The notes below the pieces were generated by a model. The model worked only from the letters and a program-made list of their open reading frames with translations. It did no database searches and was not told the origin of the DNA. Shown here in pieces: positions 2,022 to 41,488 of a stretch of 64,000 nucleotides of DNA; positions within the stretch are counted from its first letter, which is position 1, and each line of letters starts with the position of its first letter. Where the stretch lies: contig JAGGYW010000001.1 of the NCBI GenBank assembly GCA_021162365.1, positions 2,906-66,905 on the forward strand. The letters are read 5' to 3'. A program made the translations under genes and the position numbers. Source of the DNA: Nanobdellota archaeon (GTDB lineage: Archaea; Nanobdellota; Nanobdellia; CSSed11-243R1).

Positions 2022-2061
2022 TTTTTTTCTTTAGAAAAGAAAAACCTCAACTAAAAAGAAA
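2022..2061 (+). repeat. Py-hairpin + mirror purine module (copy E8)
   Basis: TTTTTCTTT (2024-2032), loop AGA, AAAGAAAAA (2036-2044), spacer CCTCAACT, AAAAAGAAA (2053-2061). The last tract is an exact mirror of the purine arm. The module starts 2 nt after the S27e stop. Confidence 0.75.
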
Positions 2062-2074
2062 CACTTTCTCTCTA

Positions 2075-2111
2075 CCTTCTTTTCCCTCAAGGCTTTTCTT
2101 CTTAAGAAAAG
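2075..2111 (-). repeat. Py-hairpin + mirror purine module (copy E9, opposite orientation)
   Basis: Minus strand reads AAGCC-CTTTTCTT-AAG-AAGAAAAG-CCTTGAG-GGGAAAAGAAGG. It is near-identical to the tRNA-Tyr and tRNA-Pro T-arm introns (22719-22767, 16987-17040). Confidence 0.75.
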
Positions 2112-16807: not shown

Positions 16808-17066
16808 GGGGCCGTGGTCTAGAAACCCTTTCTTCCCGAAGAAAGCGTTTACGGAAAGAAGGGAAAGTTGGACAACTTGGTCTAGGATGCGTGCCTGGGG
16901 GCACCCTTTCCGCCTTCTTTAGAAAAGAAGGTAGGTTGCCAAGAAAGGGAAAGAAAGGGTAGTCCGGAACGCACGTGGTCCCGAGTAAGCCTTTTCTTTG
17001 GAAAGAAAAGCCTTAAGGGAAAAGAAACCAGGATGGGCTTCGGGAGTTCAAATCTCGGCGGCCCCA
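16808..17066 (+). tRNA. tRNA-Pro (GGG) with three introns (D-loop, anticodon loop, T-arm 53/54)
   Basis: Acceptor GGGGCCG/CGGCCCC+A. D stem GTCT/GGAT. Anticodon stem CGTGC/GCACG with loop CTGGGG. T arm CCGAG-TTCAAAT-CTCGG. Approximate introns 16823-16878, 16901-16969 and 16986-17046 leave a 73-nt mature tRNA. Confidence 0.8.
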
Positions 17067-17114
17067 CTCCATAAATTTTAAATGCATAGAAAAACTTATT
17101 CTCAAGTGTTTAAA

Positions 17115-17987
17115 ATGAAGGATAAGCTTCCTATCGTAGCAGTAATAATTTTATCTGTTATAGTTATAGCAAGCTATATCTCTCCTATAAGTAACTGGAA
17201 CTCAAAGCAGATTTCTAATATATCTGTGGGTAGTAATTACTGCTTTTCTGTGATTGGGGACATTAATGGGGACTTTCCATTGCTTGAAGATTTTCTTTCT
17301 TCTGCTGCCCCAACAAATAGATTTGTGTTTGTAGATGGGAATTTCATTAATTTGAATTTGGGTGGAGAATACCTACTTCTTTCGCATGTATTAAATAAAA
17401 TTAATATACCAACAATTTTTGTAATTGGTGAAAATGAGGTAAGTGCGGGTAGCAGTTATATGTATCGGTCTGTATTTGGTGCGCCTTATTTCTCATTTAA
17501 GATTGCCGACACTTTGTTTGTTGTTGTGGATAATAGCTTGGGTAGTGTAGATGTTGATCAATACAACTGGCTCAGTAATACCCTAACAAATAATTCAAGG
17601 AGGAAGATAGTAATTATGAATAATCCAATTATTAATCCATGGATGAGCGAATATGAAACACCGGATGGGAAAGTTTTAGATTACTTGTTTAAAGAAAAGA
17701 ATGTTTCACTGGTTGTTTCATCTAATGATGAATTCGCTGTTTTTATGAAGGATGGAGTTAAGTATGTGAATTTGGGTAGTAATGAAAAAAATGTTACATA
17801 TACAAGAGTTTGCGTTGGAGGAAATGGATTGGATGTTTTCATTGGCCATATTGAAAGAAAGGATGGATTTAGAGAATTTATTTATACAAGTTTAATCCCC
17901 GGACTTTTTATAATATGTAAAGCTTTGCTTCTTGCATTAGTGCTTCATTTTTCTGTTAAAATTCTAAGAAGGGAATTTGCAAGGTGA
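17115..17987 (+). CDS. Membrane-anchored metallophosphoesterase-like protein with degenerate active-site motifs
   Basis: Fold-order motifs are present but substituted: VIGDINGD (canonical GDxHG), VDGNF (GDxxDRG), GENE (GNHE/D). Hydrophobic segments at both termini. The tracked start 17082 abuts the tRNA, so ATG 17115 is preferred. Confidence 0.5.
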   Translation: MKDKLPIVAVIILSVIVIASYISPISNWNSKQISNISVGSNYCFSVIGDINGDFPLLEDFLSSAAPTNRFVFVDGNFINLNLGGEYLLLSHVLNKINIPTIFVIGENEVSAGSSYMYRSVFGAPYFSFKIADTLFVVVDNSLGSVDVDQYNWLSNTLTNNSRRKIVIMNNPIINPWMSEYETPDGKVLDYLFKEKNVSLVVSSNDEFAVFMKDGVKYVNLGSNEKNVTYTRVCVGGNGLDVFIGHIERKDGFREFIYTSLIPGLFIICKALLLALVLHFSVKILRREFAR

Positions 17988-17991
17988 TAAA

Positions 17992-18660
17992 ATGAAAATC
18001 ACATATTTGGGACATGCTTCATTTTTAATTGAAAGTGGGAAAAAAATTTTAATTGATCCTTTTTTAAGTGGGAATCCAAAAGCTACAGCTAAGCCATCCG
18101 AAATAGAAGCAGATATAATACTTGTTACGCATGGACATGGAGATCATCTTGGCGACACAGTCGAAATTGTAAAAAACACAGGAGCAAAAGTAGTGGCAAT
18201 TCACGAGATTCAGCAGTTTTTGCTAAAGCAAGGAGTTAATGCAATTGGTATGAATATTGGAGGTAGCATAGAAATAGATGGAATAAAAATTACAATGGTG
18301 CCTGCAATCCATTCCTCTTCTTTTGATGATAAATATATGGGACATCCGGCAGGATTTGTTATTCGTTTTAGTGATGGTATTGTTTATCATGCAGGAGATA
18401 CAGGAATTTTTTGGGATATGAAATTAATACATGAATTATACTCTCCAGATATAGCTATACTCCCAATAGGGGATGTTTACACGATGGGACCAAAGGAAGC
18501 TGCAAAAGCAGTTGAGTTAATTAAGCCAAAAATTGTTATTCCTATGCACTATGGGACTTTTCCAGTTTTGACAGGAACGCCTGAGAAATTCAAAAAGCTT
18601 GTCAGCGATGCAGAGGTTTTAGTTTTTGAGATTGGAGAAACAAAAGAGGTGAAATTATGA
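17992..18660 (+). CDS. Metallo-beta-lactamase fold hydrolase (UPF0173-like)
   Basis: MKITYLGHASFLIE...VTHGHGDHLGD (HxHxDH motif), about 220 aa. Confidence 0.75.
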   Translation: MKITYLGHASFLIESGKKILIDPFLSGNPKATAKPSEIEADIILVTHGHGDHLGDTVEIVKNTGAKVVAIHEIQQFLLKQGVNAIGMNIGGSIEIDGIKITMVPAIHSSSFDDKYMGHPAGFVIRFSDGIVYHAGDTGIFWDMKLIHELYSPDIAILPIGDVYTMGPKEAAKAVELIKPKIVIPMHYGTFPVLTGTPEKFKKLVSDAEVLVFEIGETKEVKL

Positions 18661-18827
18661 ATAAGTTGTTTAAGGTGTGCGCAGATGTTGGAGATGACAT
18701 AATTGATTTTCTTCAGAGAGACAAATGGCATGCACTTTTGATTGGAATTTTATGTTTCATTTCTCCGGTGAATTTAATTATGTGGATAATGATGATTTGT
18801 TCTCTTTATAGAAAGAGAGTTAGGTAA
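18657..18827 (+). CDS. Possible 56-aa small membrane protein (below ORF-track cutoff)
   Basis: The ATG overlaps the upstream stop (ATGA at 18657-18660). It encodes MNKLFKVCADVGDDIIDFLQRDKWHALLIGILCFISPVNLIMWIMMICSLYRKRVR with one clear TM segment. Confidence 0.3.
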   Translation: MNKLFKVCADVGDDIIDFLQRDKWHALLIGILCFISPVNLIMWIMMICSLYRKRVR

Positions 18828-20205
18828 GGCTTTTGAAAAACTCAACAAAAAGCCTTACTCCCCATCCAGTCGCTCCTTTTTTTACATAATCTTTGTCTTC
18901 TTTTGACCAAAATGTTCCTGCCATATCTATATGTGCCCATGGGGTTTTGCCAACAAACTCTTTTAGAAATGCGGCTGCAGTTAATGAGCCAGCTGCCCCT
19001 CCTTCATAACCGATGTTTTTGATATCGGCAATATCACTTTTTATTACCTTGCTATACTCTTTGTAGAGAGGTAAATTCCAGACCCTTTCATTTGTTTTTT
19101 CTCCCGCCTTGAAAATTGATTTAATCAACTCTTCGTTATTTCCCATAAGTCCTGCAACATGATAACCAAGTGCAACTATGCATGCTCCTGTTAAGGTTGC
19201 AATATCTATGATTGCCTTTGGCTTCTTTTTCGATATGAAATAGATTGCATCCGCAAGTGCTAACCTACCTTCTGCATCTGTGTTTATTACTTCAACTGTC
19301 TTTCCAGACATAGAAGTTAGAATGTCGCCCGGCTTCATTGCATTTCCACCCGGCATGTTTTCAACACAAGGTATAACTCCAATTACATTTACAGGGAGCT
19401 TCAACTCTGCAATCGCGTTTATACCGCATGCAACTGCTGCCCCTCCAGCCATATCTCCCTTCATCTCACTCATTTTCTCTGATGGTTTTAATGAAATTCC
19501 TCCAGAGTCAAATGTAACTCCCTTACCAACTAAGGCATGAAATTCCTTGCTCTTCTTGTTCCCCCAATACTCGAGGACAACAAGTTTTGGCTCTTTGCTC
19601 GAGCCCTGCGCAACTCCAAGGAAACAACCCATTCCCATTCTTTCGATTTCTTTTTCGCCATATATCCTAATTTTGATTTTGTTCTTCTTTGATATTTCTT
19701 TTATTTTGCTTGCGAGAGCAGATGGCGTTGCATGATTAGATGGATTATTAACTAAATCTCTTGCGCAACAAACATATTTAGAAATTATTTGTCCTACCTC
19801 CATTCCTTTCTTAAACTTTAGCGGGCTAGTGGTTGCAAATGTAACTTCTTTAATTTCAATATCTTCTTTTTTTGTTTTAAATTTATCAAACTCGTAACTT
19901 GAAAGGATAACTCCTTCCGCAAGGGCTTGTCCGCCTATAACATAGTTGTCTAATTTTGGGACAGCGATTGTGATCTCATCTATTTTTAATTCTTTGGCGA
20001 ACCTTACAGCTTTTGCTCCGGCTTTTCTTAATTCCTCTGGGGAAAAGTCTTTCACAAAAATATCAATTACTCTCTCGGACAGGGATTTACTTTTGTCAAT
20101 ATCTACTTTTTTTGAACTATCTTTTTTAATTAGCACGAGAAGTTTAGCTTTAACTCTTTCTGCTGGGGCATCAACTACTTTTAGCTTCATTTTTTCACTC
20201 CTCAA
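18820..20205 (-). CDS. pepA: Leucyl aminopeptidase (M17 family)
   Basis: NTDAEGRL signature and VGKGVTFDSGG motif. Alternative start at 20190. Confidence 0.85.
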   Translation of the reverse strand: MRSEKMKLKVVDAPAERVKAKLLVLIKKDSSKKVDIDKSKSLSERVIDIFVKDFSPEELRKAGAKAVRFAKELKIDEITIAVPKLDNYVIGGQALAEGVILSSYEFDKFKTKKEDIEIKEVTFATTSPLKFKKGMEVGQIISKYVCCARDLVNNPSNHATPSALASKIKEISKKNKIKIRIYGEKEIERMGMGCFLGVAQGSSKEPKLVVLEYWGNKKSKEFHALVGKGVTFDSGGISLKPSEKMSEMKGDMAGGAAVACGINAIAELKLPVNVIGVIPCVENMPGGNAMKPGDILTSMSGKTVEVINTDAEGRLALADAIYFISKKKPKAIIDIATLTGACIVALGYHVAGLMGNNEELIKSIFKAGEKTNERVWNLPLYKEYSKVIKSDIADIKNIGYEGGAAGSLTAAAFLKEFVGKTPWAHIDMAGTFWSKEDKDYVKKGATGWGVRLFVEFFKSLT

Positions 20206-20413
20206 CTTTTATTGCATGGGTTGGACATTGTTCTTCAGCTTGTTTATTACATCCAACATCTTCAACTTCTTTTTCAAAAATGTTGCTGCTTACTTCTTCA
20301 CTTCCCTTTAAATGTGATTTACCATCTTCACCCATTTCCCAATGCTCTGGACAGAGAGCTGCACAATATCCACATCCAATACATTTTTCCTTGTCATGAA
20401 TAATCTTTGCCAT
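20195..20413 (-). CDS. 4Fe-4S ferredoxin
   Basis: 72 aa with CIGCGYCAALCP plus distal CNKQAEEQCP cysteines. Confidence 0.7.
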   Translation of the reverse strand: MAKIIHDKEKCIGCGYCAALCPEHWEMGEDGKSHLKGSEEVSSNIFEKEVEDVGCNKQAEEQCPTHAIKVEE

Positions 20414-20439
20414 TTCAACTCACCGCTTTTTAGAAAAAG

Positions 20440-21084
20440 TTACTTGTTTAAATATTCATCTATGAGTTTGATTGAATGCTCGCCAGTAATTCCATCCTTC
20501 AACTGTTCTTTGTCTTTTTCTAGAGAGTTTAATAATTCCTTTAAGAATCTCTCTGCCATTTCTGGTGCATACATTTCTAATACCTTTTTTAATGAGCTAA
20601 TTCCATTACATAGAATATAATCCTGACCAAATGTGCTGCCGACATAATATGTTCCTTCGCGAGAAAGAGATATACCTCTTGTGTCGACTGTAAGATTTCC
20701 GCCCCTGTTTCTCATTTCGGGACCGGCTAATGATAATATTATTCCTTTTTTCTTTGAATGTCTTTCAACTTCTAATGTGTCTTCTATTCCTTCTTTTTTG
20801 AAGAAGACAGGTTCTACGAGCGAGCTTGAAGTACTGTTATCTATTCCGATACATAATCCTGATGCGATGTACTCTATTTCTCCCTCCCTTATCCACGTTT
20901 CACCATTGAGGTATTCCTTTTTTCCACCTCTTAATGAAACAACACTTAGATATAGGATGGGTGAAGTTAATTTTACCTTTCCTGGCTTTTCCATTTCTTG
21001 AAGGTATCCACTTATTGCCATATATTCAACTAGTGTGCGAAGTTCACTATATGGTATAACACTTTCTAGCTTCAAGAGAGTCAC
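20440..21084 (-). CDS. Hypothetical protein
   Basis: 214-aa ORF. No motif recognised. Confidence 0.4.
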   Translation of the reverse strand: MTLLKLESVIPYSELRTLVEYMAISGYLQEMEKPGKVKLTSPILYLSVVSLRGGKKEYLNGETWIREGEIEYIASGLCIGIDNSTSSSLVEPVFFKKEGIEDTLEVERHSKKKGIILSLAGPEMRNRGGNLTVDTRGISLSREGTYYVGSTFGQDYILCNGISSLKKVLEMYAPEMAERFLKELLNSLEKDKEQLKDGITGEHSIKLIDEYLNK

Positions 21085-21160
21085 CCCTATAGTAAAGTAA
21101 CAGGGCAGTTAAATATTTTTTCCCAAAGAATTTATAAATCCTATTGAGGTAGAATATACT

Positions 21161-22570
21161 ATGGTATCAAAAAAGTTAATGGTAATTTTAGTTTTTGCAA
21201 TTGCATTTTTTGGCATTTTAAGCACCGCACATGCGGATTTAGGAAATATAAAATATAGTGTAAATGTCATCAATGATAAGGCAAGACCAGGAGAGAAACT
21301 AGAATATAATGTTACATTACGTAATGATGGAACATCGCCCATTAAGCTGAGTTTGAATGTATTATTCACAGGAATTACTGAGGTTAAGCCAAGTGTATTT
21401 ACACTTGATCCAGGTGCTGAGCAACTTGTGCATGTTGCTTTAACCGTAAAATCTGATCAAAAACCAGGCAGAATTTTGATTAAGTTGCTTGTGTTTGACG
21501 ACGCGGGCAATTCTCTTGATCCTCCAATATATTTACAGGGAGAAATACTCGAATCTCCTAAATTGTTTGAGTCTGTAAAAATAAATAAGGTGGAGGTAGA
21601 GCCGAAAGTTTTGGATCCACGAAATCCATTTTCTATTAAGTTTGAAGTTTACAATCCAATAAAAACAGTTGTTGTTCCGTTAGAAGTTACATCTGATATA
21701 GAAGGATTTAGCTATAGAATTGAAAATCAAACTGTAAGTGAGGGAACAAACACAATAACCATTAGCAATTTAACTCTTCCACCAGATGCAGCACCGGGTA
21801 ATCATACTTTTACAGTAAGGTTGTTATTTTTCGGCGGTGTTGTTTCTGAAGGCAGCACTGTTGCAGGCGTAGTTAGTTATTCTAACTGTGTAATTGATGA
21901 ACGCACAGATGTTAGTTTAATTGGGAAAACATATACTGCAAGCGTTAAGAACACCGGAACCGAAGAAGCAAATTGTGTAGTTTCCTCCCAAGTTACAGGC
22001 ATCGAAAAAGCATTGGTTACCTCTATTACGGAAGGTTATGCTTATGAGGATGGGCAATTTGTTTGGAAGTTGAACATTTCCCCTGGCTCAGAAGTAATTG
22101 TTAAATACAACATTAGTTATGTGCCAATTCTTGCGATTCCATTTATTGTAATTGCAGCTGTTGCAGCAATCTGGTACTTAACAAGAAAGGTTACAATCAA
22201 AAAGGAGCTTGTTGATTACAAGAGATATCCTGGGTTCATGGATTTGAAGATACAGCTTAAGGTAAGAAACTTAACTAACAATGAGCTAAGGAATGTGAAA
22301 GTTTCTGATATGCTTCCAGCATTTGTGAAGGAAGTAAGGGACTATGGAACAATTCCTGGCGAGGTTAAGAAGAAAGGCAAGTCAAAGATGGTAGTGTGGG
22401 AAATTGAGAGCATTAAGCCAAGGGAAGAGAGAGTTCTTTCATATAAGATTAGAACTTCTCTGGAAGTTTTAGGTAACATAACCTTTGCACCAGCAAAAGT
22501 GGAGTTCAAGGACATTAATGGAAACAAAGTTGAAGAGTTTTCGAACACACTTTCAATTGAAGTTGAGTAA
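21161..22570 (+). CDS. Secreted surface protein with repeated beta-sandwich (CARDB/COG1361-like) modules and a TM segment
   Basis: Sec-type signal (AFFGILSTAHA). Repeated N.G-type modules (VTLRNDGTSPIKL, ASVKNTGTEEANC). TM segment ILAIPFIVIAAVAAIWYL. The C-terminal domain looks DUF11-like. Confidence 0.55.
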   Translation: MVSKKLMVILVFAIAFFGILSTAHADLGNIKYSVNVINDKARPGEKLEYNVTLRNDGTSPIKLSLNVLFTGITEVKPSVFTLDPGAEQLVHVALTVKSDQKPGRILIKLLVFDDAGNSLDPPIYLQGEILESPKLFESVKINKVEVEPKVLDPRNPFSIKFEVYNPIKTVVVPLEVTSDIEGFSYRIENQTVSEGTNTITISNLTLPPDAAPGNHTFTVRLLFFGGVVSEGSTVAGVVSYSNCVIDERTDVSLIGKTYTASVKNTGTEEANCVVSSQVTGIEKALVTSITEGYAYEDGQFVWKLNISPGSEVIVKYNISYVPILAIPFIVIAAVAAIWYLTRKVTIKKELVDYKRYPGFMDLKIQLKVRNLTNNELRNVKVSDMLPAFVKEVRDYGTIPGEVKKKGKSKMVVWEIESIKPREERVLSYKIRTSLEVLGNITFAPAKVEFKDINGNKVEEFSNTLSIEVE

Positions 22571-22590
22571 TTTCTTCTTTTTTATTTTTG
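22571..22590 (+). terminator. T-rich terminator candidate
   Basis: TTTCTTCTTTTTTATTTTTG lies immediately after the stop at 22570. Archaeal terminators are oligo-T tracts. Confidence 0.35.
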
Positions 22591-22596
22591 TTAAAA

Positions 22597-22609
22597 AACT
22601 TTTTAAAGC
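22597..22609 (+). promoter_or_regulatory. TATA-box candidate for tRNA-Tyr
   Basis: AACTTTTTAAAGC is centred about 30 nt upstream of 22632. Confidence 0.4.
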
Positions 22610-22631
22610 AACAAATTTCTACTTAAATTGT

Positions 22632-22787
22632 CCCGGCGTAGCTCAATGGTAGAGCGCACGGCTGTAGTGGGATGATGGAGAAATCCATCGTTGAAACCGT
22701 GAGGTTGCTGGTTCGACCAAGCCTTTCTTCCCGAAGAAAGCCTTGAGGGAAAGAAGGGGAGAGGCTTCGAGTTTCCGGCCGCCGGGA
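22632..22787 (+). tRNA. tRNA-Tyr (GTA) with two introns (37/38 and T-loop 58/59)
   Basis: Acceptor CCCGGCG/CGCCGGG+A. D arm GCTC-AATGGTA-GAGC. Anticodon stem CACGG/CCGTG with loop CTGTAG. T arm GCTGG-TTCGA..TT-CCGGC. Approximate introns 22668-22695 and 22717-22772. Confidence 0.8.
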
Positions 22788-22795
22788 CTTCAAAA

Positions 22796-22810
22796 GTTTT
22801 TTAAATATAC
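22796..22810 (+). promoter_or_regulatory. TATA-box candidate for tRNA-Asp
   Basis: GTTTTTTAAATATAC is centred about 29 nt upstream of 22832. Confidence 0.4.
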
Positions 22811-22831
22811 TCACCTAATGAAAAAGTTAGT

Positions 22832-23066
22832 GCCCCGATAGTCTAGCGACCTTTTCTCCCGAGAAAAGCTCGACCAAAAGAGGGAGAAAAGAGCGGACAA
22901 TGGCCTAGGATCCCGGTCTGTCGAGCGGCCCTTCTTAGAAAGAAGCGCCGGCGGAAGAAATTCCGGGAGTGCAGTAAGCCGGGGACCCGGGACACCTTTT
23001 CTTTCAAAAAGAAAAGCTGTACCAAAAGAAAGGGAAGGTGCGGGAATTCAAATCCCGGTCGGGGCG
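22832..23066 (+). tRNA. tRNA-Asp (GTC) with three introns (D-loop, anticodon loop, T-arm 53/54)
   Basis: Acceptor GCCCCGA/TCGGGGC+G. D stem GTCT/GGAT. Anticodon stem CCGGT/GCCGG with loop CTGTCG. T arm CCGGG-TTCAAAT-CCCGG. Approximate introns 22848-22901, 22925-22977 and 22992-23046 leave a 73-nt mature tRNA. Confidence 0.8.
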
Positions 23067-23269
23067 CTTTTTCATTTGGTGATTCTTGTGAAGGTTCTCC
23101 AGCCAAGGTTTAGGAAGGGTAAGAAGAAAAGAAAGAAGTTACGTTCAAAGCAGTTAAAAAAGCAGAAGAGCAGAGGTCGTAAAAGAAATAGAAATAGGAA
23201 GAGAAGATAACTTCAACTTAATCTAAATCTATGGAAACTTTAAAATATTCTATATGTTTTGAGTTTGAT

Positions 23270-24660: not shown

Positions 24661-24774
24661 GGGCCCGTAGCTCAGCCTGGTCAGAGCGCCTGTTTCAAAT
24701 TCTCTCAGATTCACTTGAGTTTGAAGGTGATGCTTTTAACCAGGAGGTCAGGGGTTCAAATCCCCCCGGGCCCA
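24661..24774 (+). tRNA. tRNA-Lys (TTT) with an intron inside the anticodon stem (about 30/31)
   Basis: Acceptor GGGCCCG/CGGGCCC+A. D arm GCTC-AGCCTGGTCA-GAGC. The 5' anticodon stem CCTG|G is interrupted by about 39 nt (24693-24731). Loop CTTTTAA, 3' stem CCAGG, T loop TTCAAAT. Confidence 0.75.
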
Positions 24775-38693: not shown

Positions 38694-38717
38694 TACTATT
38701 TCATAGTAGCGATAGAA

Positions 38718-38762
38718 TTACCTTGAAGCAGCTGCCTGTCTTTGCACTTTTTCTTTAGAAAA
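38718..38762 (-). pseudogene. Orphan duplicate of the S7 gene 3' end (15 codons incl. stop)
   Basis: Minus strand reads ttt tct aaa gaa aaa gtg caa aga cag gca gct gct tca agg taa (FSKEKVQRQAAASR*). The true S7 end is ISKKTEVERQAAASR* at 38803-38850. Most differences are third-position and synonymous. Confidence 0.65.
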
Positions 38763-38787
38763 GAAAACCTGCACTAAAAGAAAAAGG
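38748..38787 (+). repeat. Py-hairpin + mirror purine module (copy E10)
   Basis: TTTTCTTT (38749-38756), loop AGA, AAAGAAAA (38760-38767), spacer CCTGCACT, AAAAGAAA (38776-38783, exact mirror). The pyrimidine arm is contributed by the S7 3'-end duplicate. Confidence 0.7.
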
Positions 38788-38802
38788 ATTAAATGTATGA
38801 GA

Positions 38803-39399
38803 TTACCTTGACGCTGCAGCTTGTCTTTCTACTTCTGTTTTCTTTGAAATTGCAAATGATTTTGGATCTTCCTTGCTTGCTGCAATTATTTCGTTTGCTA
38901 GCCCTTTCTCAATTGGCACTTTTTTATCGGCAACTGCTTGGAAAGCACCTTGAGTTAACCACCTTAAAGCCAAGTCAACTCTTCTTTGTGGTGAGGTATC
39001 AACTTGCTTTGGGACTCTTATTCCTCCGATTTCAATTACAGTGACCTCATCCCTTGGGGCTGCGTTTTCAACAGCTCTAACAAGAACTTCGACAGGATTT
39101 TGTTTGGTTTGCTTTTCAATTATTTCAAATGTTTTCTTTGTTATGTTGTAAACAGTTTGTGATTTTCCGGTACAGAACTCACTTGTCCTCCAGTGCTTCT
39201 TACCTTTGTGACCAGGGGACATAAGTTTGTTCATGAATCTTTCAACAATGTTAACATTACTTTTAGCAAACCTTGTGCTTGCATGTCTGCCATATGTTTG
39301 TGGGACAAAGAGAGGCTTTAAGTTTATAACACTCTTTAATCCAGGATCTTTGACTTCCACATTCGTATCATACTTCCCGAAAATTTTTATTTCCACCAT
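38803..39399 (-). CDS. rps7: 30S ribosomal protein S7
   Basis: 198 aa with typical archaeal S7 sequence (VERFMNKLM..GKK, VENAAPRDEV, RRVDLALRW). Confidence 0.9.
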   Translation of the reverse strand: MVEIKIFGKYDTNVEVKDPGLKSVINLKPLFVPQTYGRHASTRFAKSNVNIVERFMNKLMSPGHKGKKHWRTSEFCTGKSQTVYNITKKTFEIIEKQTKQNPVEVLVRAVENAAPRDEVTVIEIGGIRVPKQVDTSPQRRVDLALRWLTQGAFQAVADKKVPIEKGLANEIIAASKEDPKSFAISKKTEVERQAAASR

Positions 39400-39408
39400 C
39401 TTATCTCA

Positions 39409-39444
39409 CTTTTCTTTGGTTAATCTTTCTTTTTAAGAAAGATT
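39409..39444 (-). repeat. Py-hairpin + purine tract module (copy E11, imperfect mirror)
   Basis: Plus strand has a 10-bp hairpin AATCTTTCTT-TTT-AAGAAAGATT (39422-39444) overlapping the S12 stop. The minus strand continues TAACC-AAAGAAAAG. Confidence 0.55.
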
Positions 39445-40053: not shown

Positions 40054-41319
40054 ATGGCAGCAAAACCACACATAAATTTGGTCGTAATTGGTCACGTAGA
40101 CCATGGGAAGTCGACGATTGTAGGAAGATTACTTTATGAAACAGGTACAATCACCGAACAGGATATTGAAAGGTTAAAGAAAGAGGCAGCCGCCTTGGGT
40201 AAAGCCACATTCGAGTTTGCATATGTACTTGATGCAACTCGTGAAGAAAGAACAAGGGGTGTCACAATTGATTTGTCTCACATGAAATTCGAAACCCCAA
40301 AATATTACTTTACAATAATTGATGCACCTGGGCACAGAGACTTCATTAAAAACATGATTACAGGTGCGGCACAAGCAGATGCAGCTGTACTTGTAGTGGC
40401 TGCAAAAGAGGGTATCCAACCACAGACAAAGGAGCACGCATTCCTTGCGAAGGTTCTTGGAATTAAGCAGTTCATCGTTGCAATTAACAAAATGGATACA
40501 GTGGATTACAAAGAGGACGCATACAACCAAGTTAAGGCAGAGCTTGAAAAGTTCTTGAAGACAGCAGGGTTTAAGATAGACGAGATTACATTTGTGCCTG
40601 TGAGTGCATTAGAGGGTGAAAACGTAACAAAGAAGCTTGGAAAGATGCCATGGTGGAAGGGTCCAACATTGCTTGAAGCACTTGATGCACTTAAAGAGCC
40701 AGAAAAGCCAATTGACTTGCCACTTAGATTGCCAATACAAGATGTTTACTCAATTACAGGTATTGGTACAGTGCCTGTAGGAAGAGTTGAGACAGGTGTA
40801 ATGAAAGTTGGTCAGAAAGTTATCTTTGAGCCAGCAAATGTCTCAGGAGAAGTTAAGTCAATCGAAATGCACCATGAACAGATGCAGGAAGCAAAGCCAG
40901 GTGACAACATTGGTTTCAACGTGCGTGGTGTGACAAAAGAACAAATTAAGAGAGGAGATGTTGTTGGTCCAGTTGAAAACCCACCAACAGTTGCAAAAGA
41001 ATTCACAGCACAAATGGTTATCTTACACCACCCAACTGCAATTAGCAAGGGTTACACACCAGTATTGCACGCACACACAACACAAGTACCAGTTAAGTTT
41101 AAGGAATTGAAGCAAAAGCTTGATCCAAGAACAGGTCAAGTAGCACAAGAAAACCCAGACATGCTTAAGACAGGAGATGCAGCAGTTGTTGTGCTTGAAC
41201 CACAGAAGCCATTAGTAATTGAAAAGAGAAGCGAAATTCCAAAGCTTTCAAGCTTTGCAGTTAGAGACATGGGTGAAACAGTTGGTGCTGGCTTCGCAAT
41301 TGACATTGTGAAGCGCTAA
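40054..41319 (+). CDS. tuf: Translation elongation factor aEF-1 alpha
   Basis: [17 protein letters not shown] and NKMD G-domain motifs, 421 aa. Confidence 0.95.
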
Positions 41320-41340
41320 TTTCTTTCTTTACACTTTCTC
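41308..41340 (+). repeat. Direct repeat copy 1 (last 4 tuf codons + 3' flank)
   Basis: GTGAAGCGCTAATTTCTTTCTTTACACTTTCTC. It recurs at 41457-41488 with one indel and two mismatches. Confidence 0.7.
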
Positions 41341-41379
41341 TTTCTTTTCAAGAAAGAGAACCTGTGCTAAGAGAAAGAA
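41336..41379 (+). repeat. Py-hairpin + mirror purine module (copy E12)
   Basis: TTCTCTTTCTT (41336-41346), loop TTC, AAGAAAGAGAA (41350-41360), spacer CCTGTGCT, AAGAGAAAGAA (41369-41379). This is an exact 11-nt mirror with three matched G positions. Confidence 0.8.
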
Positions 41380-41397
41380 TCTTCTCCTTTGGTGCGA

Positions 41398-41450
41398 CTT
41401 TTCTTTTTTGATTTTTCTCTTTGGTAAAGCTTTTTCTTCCTAAGAAAAAG
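41398..41450 (-). repeat. Py-hairpin + purine tracts module (copy E13, opposite orientation, imperfect)
   Basis: Plus-strand hairpin CTTTTTCTT-CCT-AAGAAAAAG (41430-41450). The minus strand continues CTTTACC-AAAGAGAAAAA-TC-AAAAAAGAAAAG. Only the distal tract approximates the mirror. Confidence 0.5.
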
Positions 41451-41456
41451 GTTTTT

Positions 41457-41488
41457 GTGAAGCGCTAATCTTTTCTTTGCACTTTTTC
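41457..41488 (+). repeat. Direct repeat copy 2 (orphan copy of tuf 3' end + flank)
   Basis: GTGAAGCGCTAATCTTTTCTTTGCACTTTTTC lies 149 nt downstream of copy 1. Confidence 0.7.

Follow-up and report, generated by a model that had tools for sequence, protein, structure and literature searches.

Intrastrand triplex motifs of class II, in which a 5' pyrimidine tract is followed by a purine tract and by a second, reverse-Hoogsteen purine tract, have been described in bacterial genomes (Hoyne/Maher 2000), among them BoxC/PIT/TMECO of Escherichia coli (Holder et al. 2015; PMC4666352). The TMECO consensus reads CCCTCNCCC-N3-6-GGGNGAGGG-N3-GGGNGAGGG, and BoxC/TMECO is a multi-copy DNA repeat, associated with rearranged loci, that folds in vitro as a triplex of DNA (PMC4666352). 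The other described system of relevance is the 'transposition' of transfer RNA (tRNA) introns in Thermoproteales, the mechanism of which is unknown and presumed to operate at the DNA level (PMC4090602). Here, we describe a family of short modules with class II symmetry in a 64-kb stretch (the window) of contig JAGGYW010000001.1 of a Nanobdellota archaeon (assembly GCA_021162365.1), where copies are found both between genes and inside tRNA introns. As judged from their sequences, the modules are a lineage-specific family of homopyrimidine/homopurine units of 30-45 nt, each laid out as a pyrimidine arm (Py) of 6-11 nt, a loop of 2-3 nt, the Watson-Crick purine partner of Py (Pu1), a spacer, and a second purine tract (Pu2) that mirrors Pu1.

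With BoxC/TMECO the modules share a predicted structural class, but they are not the same family. Tract order and symmetry are identical, the stems of PIT/BoxC/TMECO also comprise 8-9 triplets with a pyrimidine-motif counterpart on the complementary strand, and those repeats are likewise multi-copy, mostly intergenic, very unevenly distributed among close relatives and tied to rearranged loci. By contrast, the window tracts bear no similarity to the TMECO consensus, being A/T-rich (e.g. CTTTCTTC/GAAGAAAG/GAAAGAAG) where TMECO is G/C-rich; TMECO is bacterial, has not been reported from introns, has a second loop of 3 nt and, because it is represented by one conserved consensus, lacks covariation evidence, whereas the modules occur as approximately 20 co-varying alleles with an 8-nt second loop in a DPANN host, half of the window copies being in tRNA introns. 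The first loop (2-3 nt) falls within the ranges accepted by ITxF (1-6 nt) and by Hoyne et al. (0-10 nt), while the 8-nt second loop falls within the latter only. Modules of this kind are thus beyond the reach of a published triplex finder, and further families like this one may have escaped notice in other genomes. An earlier sequence-only reading of this DNA had regarded the architecture as previously undescribed, which is incorrect, since the class II motif has the same one (PMC4666352). What is new with respect to bacterial DNA is the archaeal host, the intron setting and the support from covariation; no paper was found that links tRNA introns or archaea with triplex motifs.

Architecture, frequency and controls

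The modules were catalogued by an exact scan requiring a pyrimidine arm of at least 6 nt, a loop of 2-6 nt, a Watson-Crick purine arm and a third tract that is its exact mirror. The scan returned 13 modules in the window, the G+C content of which is approximately 36%, in agreement with the approximately 13 of the sequence-only reading, every listed copy of which lies where it had been placed. Exact Py and Pu1 arms, 6-11 nt long and separated by a loop of 2-3 nt, are present in the 13 window copies and in the 37 distinct copies of the lineage, and in 11 of the 13 window copies Pu2 is the exact mirror of Pu1, which is the arrangement that defines class II. The spacer is also exactly 8 nt in 11 of the 13. 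Three copies had been considered to fit less well. The copy at 16913 has a matched core (TTCTTT/AAAGAA/AAGAAA), with a terminal GG paired to CC in place of G*G, and that at 39441-39412(-) reads TTTCTT/AAGAAA/AAAGAA; the third, at 41450-41415(-), contains one defective triple.

The frequency of the mirror exceeds chance: dinucleotide-shuffled versions of the window (n=100) contained 0.13 modules on average and never more than 2, and unrelated archaeal and metagenome loci (1.97 Mb) gave 0.39 modules per 64 kb. When a direct repeat was substituted for the mirror at a spacer of 8 nt, 0 matches were obtained vs 11 mirrors. The reverse tract order (class I) produced just two six-nucleotide chance matches across all lineage loci, and two exact allele patterns had 0 matches in 2.9 million viral contigs. 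In a test free of ascertainment, all perfect Py/Pu hairpins of the window and the relatives were collected down to an arm length of 7 nt (n=40), and an exact mirror was found 8 nt downstream in 18 of them; approximately 12 more gain a mirror tract if a terminal G...C closing pair is permitted (subtype G-CTNNAC-C, with a second loop of 6 nt), for a total of 30/40.

These values bear on one alternative, namely a chance or low-complexity artefact, mirror matches being trivial in A-rich purine runs. The tracts are indeed A-rich with 1-3 G and an A/T share of 70-85%, many of them are nearly self-mirror, and mirror and shifted direct repeat differ at only 0-2 positions. The artefact is nonetheless refuted by the shuffles, by the scarcity of matches in unrelated AT-rich DPANN DNA, by the fixed 8-nt spacer, by the third tract of 30 out of 40 unbiased hairpins and by the coordinated indels and substitutions of orthologs, and its probability is negligible.

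In some cases (L166 11262-11320, both strands; window 41320-41380) a hairpin is flanked on either side by a third tract that matches it (Py2'-spacer-Py-loop-Pu1-spacer-Pu2), so that each strand reads as a class II module and one hairpin is common to both.

Three-way covariation among relatives

The EF-1alpha of the window is 93-95% identical to that of metagenome-assembled genomes from hydrothermal sites labelled Nanobdellati or Nanoarchaeota, and the relatives at this level of identity, L002 and L004 (L-numbers denote loci of relatives or background), carry modules. The contig of the window is also on record in an ENA metagenome. Syntenic loci from approximately four further genomes (L162, L166-L169, L171-L173) were retrieved through homologs of the neighbouring transketolase and serpin genes. 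Some 25 further modules are contributed by these approximately six related genomes, and the lineage as a whole comprises 37 distinct module sequences with approximately 20 tract alleles; 30 have an 8-nt spacer, and only five copies contain a single defective triple. Essentially no modules were found in approximately 75 more distant DPANN loci (1.1 Mb), and a metagenome scan with the transketolase neighbour recovered only relatives of at most 65% identity, without modules, which were used as extra background.

Close relatives carry modules whose tracts differ and remain matched, and the earlier observation that the G positions vary between copies yet agree in all three tracts is borne out by coordinated changes in orthologous and paralogous copies. 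In the T-loop intron of tRNA-Tyr, three genomes agree in the flanks (CCAAGCC) and in the spacer (CCTTGAGG), with CTTTCTTC/GAAGAAAG/GAAAGAAG in the window vs CTTTCTTT/AAAGAAAG/GAAAGAAA in L169 and L166, one C.G*G triple being exchanged for T.A*A. One T.A*A triple is deleted from all three tracts when the D-loop intron of tRNA-Asp is compared between L169 and L171, and the 37/38 intron of tRNA-Pro shows a one-triple indel across all three tracts between L162 and L167. Outside the introns, the ortholog in L004 of the module 3' of the S7 gene reads TTTTTCTT/AAGAAAAA/AAAAAGAA, the G having moved by one position in all three tracts with the spacer CCTGCAC unchanged, and the module between S12 and S7 is present there as a different allele, TTTCTCTTT/AAAGAGAAA/AAAGAGAAA. 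G.U pairs are nearly absent from Py-Pu1, with one T.G opposition among the single-defect copies (the exact-match catalogue excludes them by construction).

To our knowledge, mirror repeats are not produced by any template-copying process, and we know of no symmetric protein that would read mirror repeats rather than direct or inverted ones. The only scheme that fits the tracts perfectly is a predicted one of Watson-Crick Py.Pu1 pairing combined with antiparallel purine-purine Pu1*Pu2 pairing, or of T*A-T / C+*G-C triples on the other strand. Since the tracts drift fast and yet all three stay matched, the three-way pairing itself would be what selection preserves, and we consider it very probable that the matching is real and selected. 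Until now, the case for natural intrastrand triplex motifs has been built on their over-representation and on in vitro folding of one conserved sequence; approximately 20 alleles with coordinated substitutions and indels provide evidence of the covariation type for a selected three-stranded scheme in a living lineage.

A proposed repeat acting at the DNA level

The explanation that we favour, with a probability of roughly 0.45, is that the structure is formed by single-stranded DNA and that the introns are tolerated insertions. A single strand exposed by transcription, replication or recombination would fold by pairing Py with Pu1 in the Watson-Crick mode, and Pu2 would return after the 8-nt turn to match Pu1 in antiparallel orientation (A*A-T, G*G-C), the complementary strand being capable of the equivalent T*A-T / C+*G-C arrangement. 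By analogy with what has been proposed for bacterial BoxC/TMECO, such a fold may promote local rearrangement or copying. Copies in tRNA genes would persist because the flanking bulge-helix-bulge (BHB) motif lets the splicing endonuclease cut them from the RNA. Pu1-spacer-Pu2 is a purine mirror repeat with the same triplet code as H-DNA, but H-DNA needs just two tracts and a supercoiled duplex, whereas the third, inverted tract of the modules would permit self-folding of a single strand with arms of 6-11 bp. Of the intramolecular triple helix put forward in the sequence-only reading, the fold-back symmetry is upheld as exact and selected, while the implied RNA triplex of the precursor tRNAs is doubtful for the reasons given in the next section.

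The distribution of the copies shows that the unit proliferates and turns over within one thermal-vent DPANN clade, that it adjoins the most heavily transcribed genes (ribosomal proteins, EF-1alpha and tRNAs) and that it is the core of BHB introns that appear, vanish and move between tRNA genes. The allele TTCTCTTTCTT/AAGAAAGAGAA/AAGAGAAAGAA, with the spacer CCTG(T/C)GCT, is located after EF-1alpha in the window and, in L166 (-11347), after the serpin gene, and a one-defect copy of it with the spacer CATGGGCT follows tRNA-Pro in L167 (4907); no module follows EF-1alpha in L004. Subfamilies are common to intronic and intergenic copies. That with an AAGCC flank and a CCTTRAGG spacer comprises intron 3 of tRNA-Pro, intron 2 of tRNA-Tyr and the intergenic copy at 2111(-), and is found in the two tRNAs at different positions (Tyr 58/59, Pro 53/54). 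In L167, tRNA-Pro has a D-loop intron almost identical in sequence to the one that tRNA-Asp has in the window. The T-arm of tRNA-Asp has no intron in L171, one at 53/54 in the window and in L172, one at 59/60 in L166, and introns at both of these sites in L169, and the positions in tRNA-Pro (15/16, 37/38 and 53/54 in the window vs 37/38 and 59/60 in L162) also differ in the L162 and L167 orthologs. The segment downstream of tRNA-Pro is hypervariable, consisting of 225 nt with 4-5 modules in L167 (4810-5200) and L168 (1-395) vs approximately 90 unrelated nt in L166 (4930-5180), between flanks that are 100% identical. The S12-S7 module is missing from L002, L006 and L010, where S12 and S7 abut, and the S7 copy of L002 is inverted relative to that of the window.

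The introns of this clade resemble the transposing introns of the Thermoproteales type (Fujishima et al. 2010, reviewed in PMC4090602), which are likewise BHB introns, occur several to a tRNA, lie at non-canonical sites (D-loop, 53/54, 58-60), recur in near-identical form from one tRNA gene to another, and are gained and lost among closely related genomes. They differ in the phylum, in having as their core a repeat unit that is also found in intergenic DNA, and in the three-tract symmetry, which is unreported for the Thermoproteales introns in the literature open to search. The spread of small tRNA introns in archaea has yet to be explained (PMC4090602), and a repeat unit that is also present outside introns and turns over from strain to strain is a concrete candidate mobile entity, with a sequence by which it can be traced.

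Several points weigh against the DNA-level explanation. The triplex is predicted from the symmetry of the tracts. A-rich purine-motif DNA triplexes are the weakest kind, the stabler T*A-T form being that of the other strand. Among approximately 55 open reading frames (ORFs) of the window no transposase, integrase, reverse transcriptase or HUH nuclease was found, nor were terminal inverted repeats beyond the internal hairpin or fixed target duplications detected; within the window the modules do not have the terminal inverted repeats, fixed-length target-site duplication and transposase of a miniature inverted-repeat transposable element (MITE) or of an element derived from an insertion sequence. 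The spacers (CCTTGAGG, CCTGCAC) are more conserved than the tracts, which could mean a protein site. A host role in termination or mRNA stability could likewise account for the location of copies beside highly expressed genes. Finally, the intron copies all have one orientation in the RNA sense, which could hint at an RNA role; common descent of the introns explains it equally well, and because whole introns are inherited as units this uniformity is uninformative for the choice between DNA and RNA.

Like the repetitive extragenic palindromic (REP) sequences, bacterial interspersed mosaic elements (BIME) and MITEs of bacteria, the modules are short structured repeats at gene 3' ends or in intercistronic positions, single, in inverted pairs or in clusters, and strain-variable. 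They are distinguished from these by being three-tract units instead of simple palindromes, and neither terminal inverted repeats, a fixed duplication, a REP-associated tyrosine transposase (RAYT) nor another transposase was seen with them in the window.

Modules within tRNA introns

ARAGORN called no tRNA in the window, and the sole Rfam match there was one ordinary tRNA at 24661-24774. Both ARAGORN and the Rfam tRNA model at its gathering threshold miss the three multi-intron tRNA genes (16808-17066, 22632-23066), which implies that tRNAs are under-counted when genomes of this clade are annotated. In silico splicing, with the BHB inserts cut after the second nucleotide of each 3-nt bulge, yielded sequences that ARAGORN calls as tRNA-Pro(GGG), tRNA-Asp(GUC) and tRNA-Tyr(GUA) with canonical cloverleaves (table 1). 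The modules are found in seven of the eight predicted introns of these genes, so that the assignment of seven copies to tRNA introns by the sequence-only reading was correct.

The BHB motif, with its two 3-nt bulges and 4-bp helix, can be recognized at the junctions. The T-loop intron of tRNA-Tyr has a canonical hBHBh' arrangement, with H = UUCG/CGAG, bulges ACC and UUU, and h' = AAGCC/GGCUU, and the cut behind the second bulge nucleotide leaves a T-loop of 7 nt. In the 53/54 introns of tRNA-Pro and tRNA-Asp, H is CCCG/CGGG and the bulges are AGU/AGU and GGA/AAU; H is GUCU/GGAC in the D-loop introns, and the L162 T-loop intron has H = UUCA/UGAA with bulges AAC and AUU. No splicing endonuclease gene was found in the window. 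Target-site duplications were considered for the tRNA introns and rejected, the repeats TTCGA and CGGGA being the palindromic central helices of the BHB motifs.

Table 1. tRNA genes and modules of the window, with module tracts in the order Py / loop / Pu1 / spacer / Pu2.
Feature	Positions	Strand	Description
tRNA-Pro(GGG) gene	16808..17066	+	three BHB introns: 16823-16875 in D-loop, 16901-16969 at 37/38, 16986-17046 at 53/54; spliced product a 77-nt cloverleaf
Pro intron 1 module	16828..16861	+	CTTTCTTC / cc / GAAGAAAG / cgtttacg / GAAAGAAG
Pro intron 2 module	16913..16946	+	CCTTCTTT / aga / AAAGAAGG / taggttg / ccAAGAAA; imperfect ends
Pro intron 3 module	16991..17027	+	CTTTTCTTT / gg / AAAGAAAAG / ccttaagg / GAAAAGAAA
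tRNA-Tyr(GUA) gene	22632..22787	+	intron 1 22666-22693 without module; intron 2 22718-22773 in T-loop
Tyr intron 2 module	22723..22756	+	CTTTCTTC / cc / GAAGAAAG / ccttgagg / GAAAGAAG
tRNA-Asp(GUC) gene	22832..23066	+	three BHB introns: 22847-22900 in D-loop, 22924-22976 at 37/38, 22992-23046 at 53/54
Asp intron 1 module	22851..22882	+	CTTTTCTC / cc / GAGAAAAG / ctcgac / cAAAAGAG, then a fourth tract, GGAGAAAAGAG, a direct copy of Pu1
Asp intron 2 module	22931..22959	+	CTTCTT / aga / AAGAAG / cgccggcg / GAAGAA; kept in L166, L169 and L171
Asp intron 3 module	22996..23031	+	CTTTTCTTT / caa / AAAGAAAAG / ctgtac / cAAAAGAAA
Module right after stop of S27e-like gene	2024..2061	+	TTTTTCTTT / aga / AAAGAAAAA / cctcaact / AAAAAGAAA
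Module upstream of eIF2alpha	2077..2111	-	CTTTTCTT / aag / AAGAAAAG / ccttgagg / GAAAAGAA; tail-to-tail with the 2024 copy
Module downstream of S7 gene	38749..38783	+	TTTTCTTT / aga / AAAGAAAA / cctgcact / AAAAGAAA; gene on minus strand
Module between S12 and S7 genes	39412..39441	-	(C)TTTCTT / aaa / AAGAAA(G) / attaac / (c)AAAGAA
Module right after EF-1alpha stop	41336..41379	+	TTCTCTTTCTT / ttc / AAGAAAGAGAA / cctgtgct / AAGAGAAAGAA
Module near EF-1alpha	41415..41450	-	CTTTTTCTT / agg / AAGAAAAAG / ctttac / cAAAGAGAA; one defective triple

The intron setting raises the question of whether the three tracts might act in RNA. A triple helix in the precursor tRNA or in the excised (circular) intron, with Pu2 lying in the major groove of Py-Pu1 (A*A-U, G*G-C), might compact or stabilise the intron or mark it for splicing or decay. 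Short purine*purine-pyrimidine triples are part of the tRNA core. The first RNA base triples were those of tRNA-Phe (PMC7583470). Such a structure would be in keeping with the single orientation, in the RNA sense, of approximately 25 intron copies at nine intron sites, with the avoidance of G.U pairs in Py-Pu1, and with the linkers of 5-9 nt between Pu2 and h' in several introns (GGGAGA in the window tRNA-Tyr, CTCAGGGTG in L166, CCAGGATG in Pro 53/54), which are long enough to return from the top of a stack of eight triples. However, every intron copy is of the purine motif in the RNA sense, the formation of which in RNA is reported to be excluded (PMC4666352) or contested (PMC7583470, a 2020 review). 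In other introns (L172 Asp 53/54, L162 Pro T-loop and L166 Asp D-loop) h' closes Py onto Pu2 with a linker of only 0-2 nt, so that a fold-back third strand would be sterically incompatible with the inner helix, and the intergenic copies occur in both orientations relative to transcription. By taking these points together with the folds considered below, an RNA triple helix in the introns is rather unlikely, and its more specific form, an all-RNA purine-motif triplex of 6-11 contiguous A*A-U / G*G-C triples maintained by selection, for instance because it stabilises, marks or mobilises the intron, is improbable. If true, a contiguous RNA triplex of the type that model studies deny would have been found in nature for the first time, and the spread of tRNA introns in archaea, as yet unexplained, would be linked to a defined structure.

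At 37 C, the computed RNA secondary-structure energy of the Py-Pu1 hairpin alone is only -2.5 to -6.7 kcal/mol, and at 75 C no stability is left. In five of the seven introns the minimum-energy RNA fold lacks this hairpin and pairs Py with Pu2 or with a fourth tract instead, which also speaks against the RNA triplex. A hairpin so weak and mostly unused, together with the avoidance of G.U pairs, means that RNA secondary structure alone fails to explain the strict conservation of Py-Pu1. The same folds could point to a different role for the third tract, namely in a bistable RNA where Py would pair either with Pu1 in the short hairpin or with Pu2 and its flanks in a long helix extending h', Pu2 thus serving an alternative Watson-Crick/G.U pairing. 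In several introns the partner that RNAfold assigns to Py is indeed Pu2 or a fourth purine tract (e.g. CACCUUUUCUUUC/GAAAGGGAAGGUG), the helices being extended by CC...GG flanks, and intron 1 of tRNA-Asp has its direct copy of Pu1 downstream. Yet such pairing would be served best by a direct repeat of Pu1, and at a spacer of 8 nt only mirrors are seen; with every asymmetric G, Py-Pu2 incurs a C.A mismatch, it is the mirror and not the direct register that the coordinated changes maintain, and the same symmetry is found in intergenic copies of both orientations. As the primary cause of the mirror the alternative hairpin was rejected, although such pairing does occur in the RNA folds, and the bistable RNA as a whole is very unlikely.

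Intron 1 of tRNA-Tyr, located in the anticodon loop, is the intron without a module. It forms a perfect 9-bp hairpin with a GAAA loop that is conserved in L166 and L171, and an identity as a C/D-box RNA was rejected since it is a plain 9-bp hairpin. A ninth intron in the window, in the tRNA at 24661-24774, is approximately 40 nt long, unrelated and without a module. The G+C content of the spliced tRNAs (64-69%) suggests a thermophile.

Intergenic modules

Six modules of the window lie outside tRNA genes, in mixed orientation relative to transcription. In the lineage, intergenic copies are found directly after the S27e, S12, S7, EF-1alpha and serpin genes and after tRNA-Pro, a distribution that could also be accounted for by a transcript element beneficial to the host: the intergenic copies would be bidirectional oligo-T terminators or stabilisers of 3' ends or intercistronic regions, and the intron copies by-products. 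Runs of T5-T7 are frequent in the Py tracts of intergenic modules (2024, 38749, 41450(-), L002, L004 and L167), whereas the intron modules have at most T4, with one exception in L171; runs of at least five T fit the archaeal oligo-T terminator but are not specific to it. In a variant of this proposal, transcripts of the opposite orientation would present the order U-rich / U-rich / A-rich, from which U*A-U and C+*G-C triples might arise in the manner of the element for nuclear expression (ENE) of PAN RNA and the stability elements of MALAT1 and MEN-beta, pyrimidine-motif RNA triplexes being well established (PMC7583470). This U-U-A order is found in the copy 3' of S7, in the window and in L004, and in no intron copy, the introns having the other orientation; the linkers are far shorter than those of ENE/MALAT1, which these copies resemble in sequence order. 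Against a transcript element, the orientation after the same gene is not kept, as seen with the inverted S7 copy of L002, and is split approximately 7 to 6; closely related genomes differ in which copies they have gained or lost; transcription would be stopped by T runs within the module before it reached the A-rich tract; and the intron copies are left unexplained. We therefore regard it as an unlikely account of the family, for which the DNA-level repeat with tolerated intron copies is preferred.

Gene ends are duplicated next to some of the intergenic modules. The 3' end of EF-1alpha, i.e. the last 10-20 coding bases, the stop and a T-rich tail (GTGAAGCGCTAA...CAC), is repeated approximately 150 nt downstream (41308-41334 vs 41457-41482), and the pair brackets both modules there; past the module of the S7 gene there is a pseudo-copy, approximately 85% identical, of the gene end (38795-38824 and 38717-38746, minus strand). 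These irregular duplications, of 26-30 nt, are confined to the ends of EF-1alpha and S7 and may be a trace left by module insertion.

A related structure was noticed downstream of tRNA-Pro in L162 (approximately 165-85, minus) and of the S7 gene in L002 (8661-8745), where a module-like pyrimidine hairpin encloses a conserved GC-rich 'spacer' of approximately 45 nt (CAGAG[C/T]GACTT..GTGCCGA.ACAAAG.CTCGT). It could be a small structured RNA, and nothing comparable was seen in the window.

Between tRNA-Asp and the serpin gene, every syntenic relative inspected has, like the window (23076-23210 +; 439-561 in L169), an ORF of 40-44 codons for an extremely Lys/Arg-rich peptide (…KVLQPRFRKGKKKRKKLRSKQLKKQKSRGRKRNRNRKRR), which could be a small protein of the ribosomal type.

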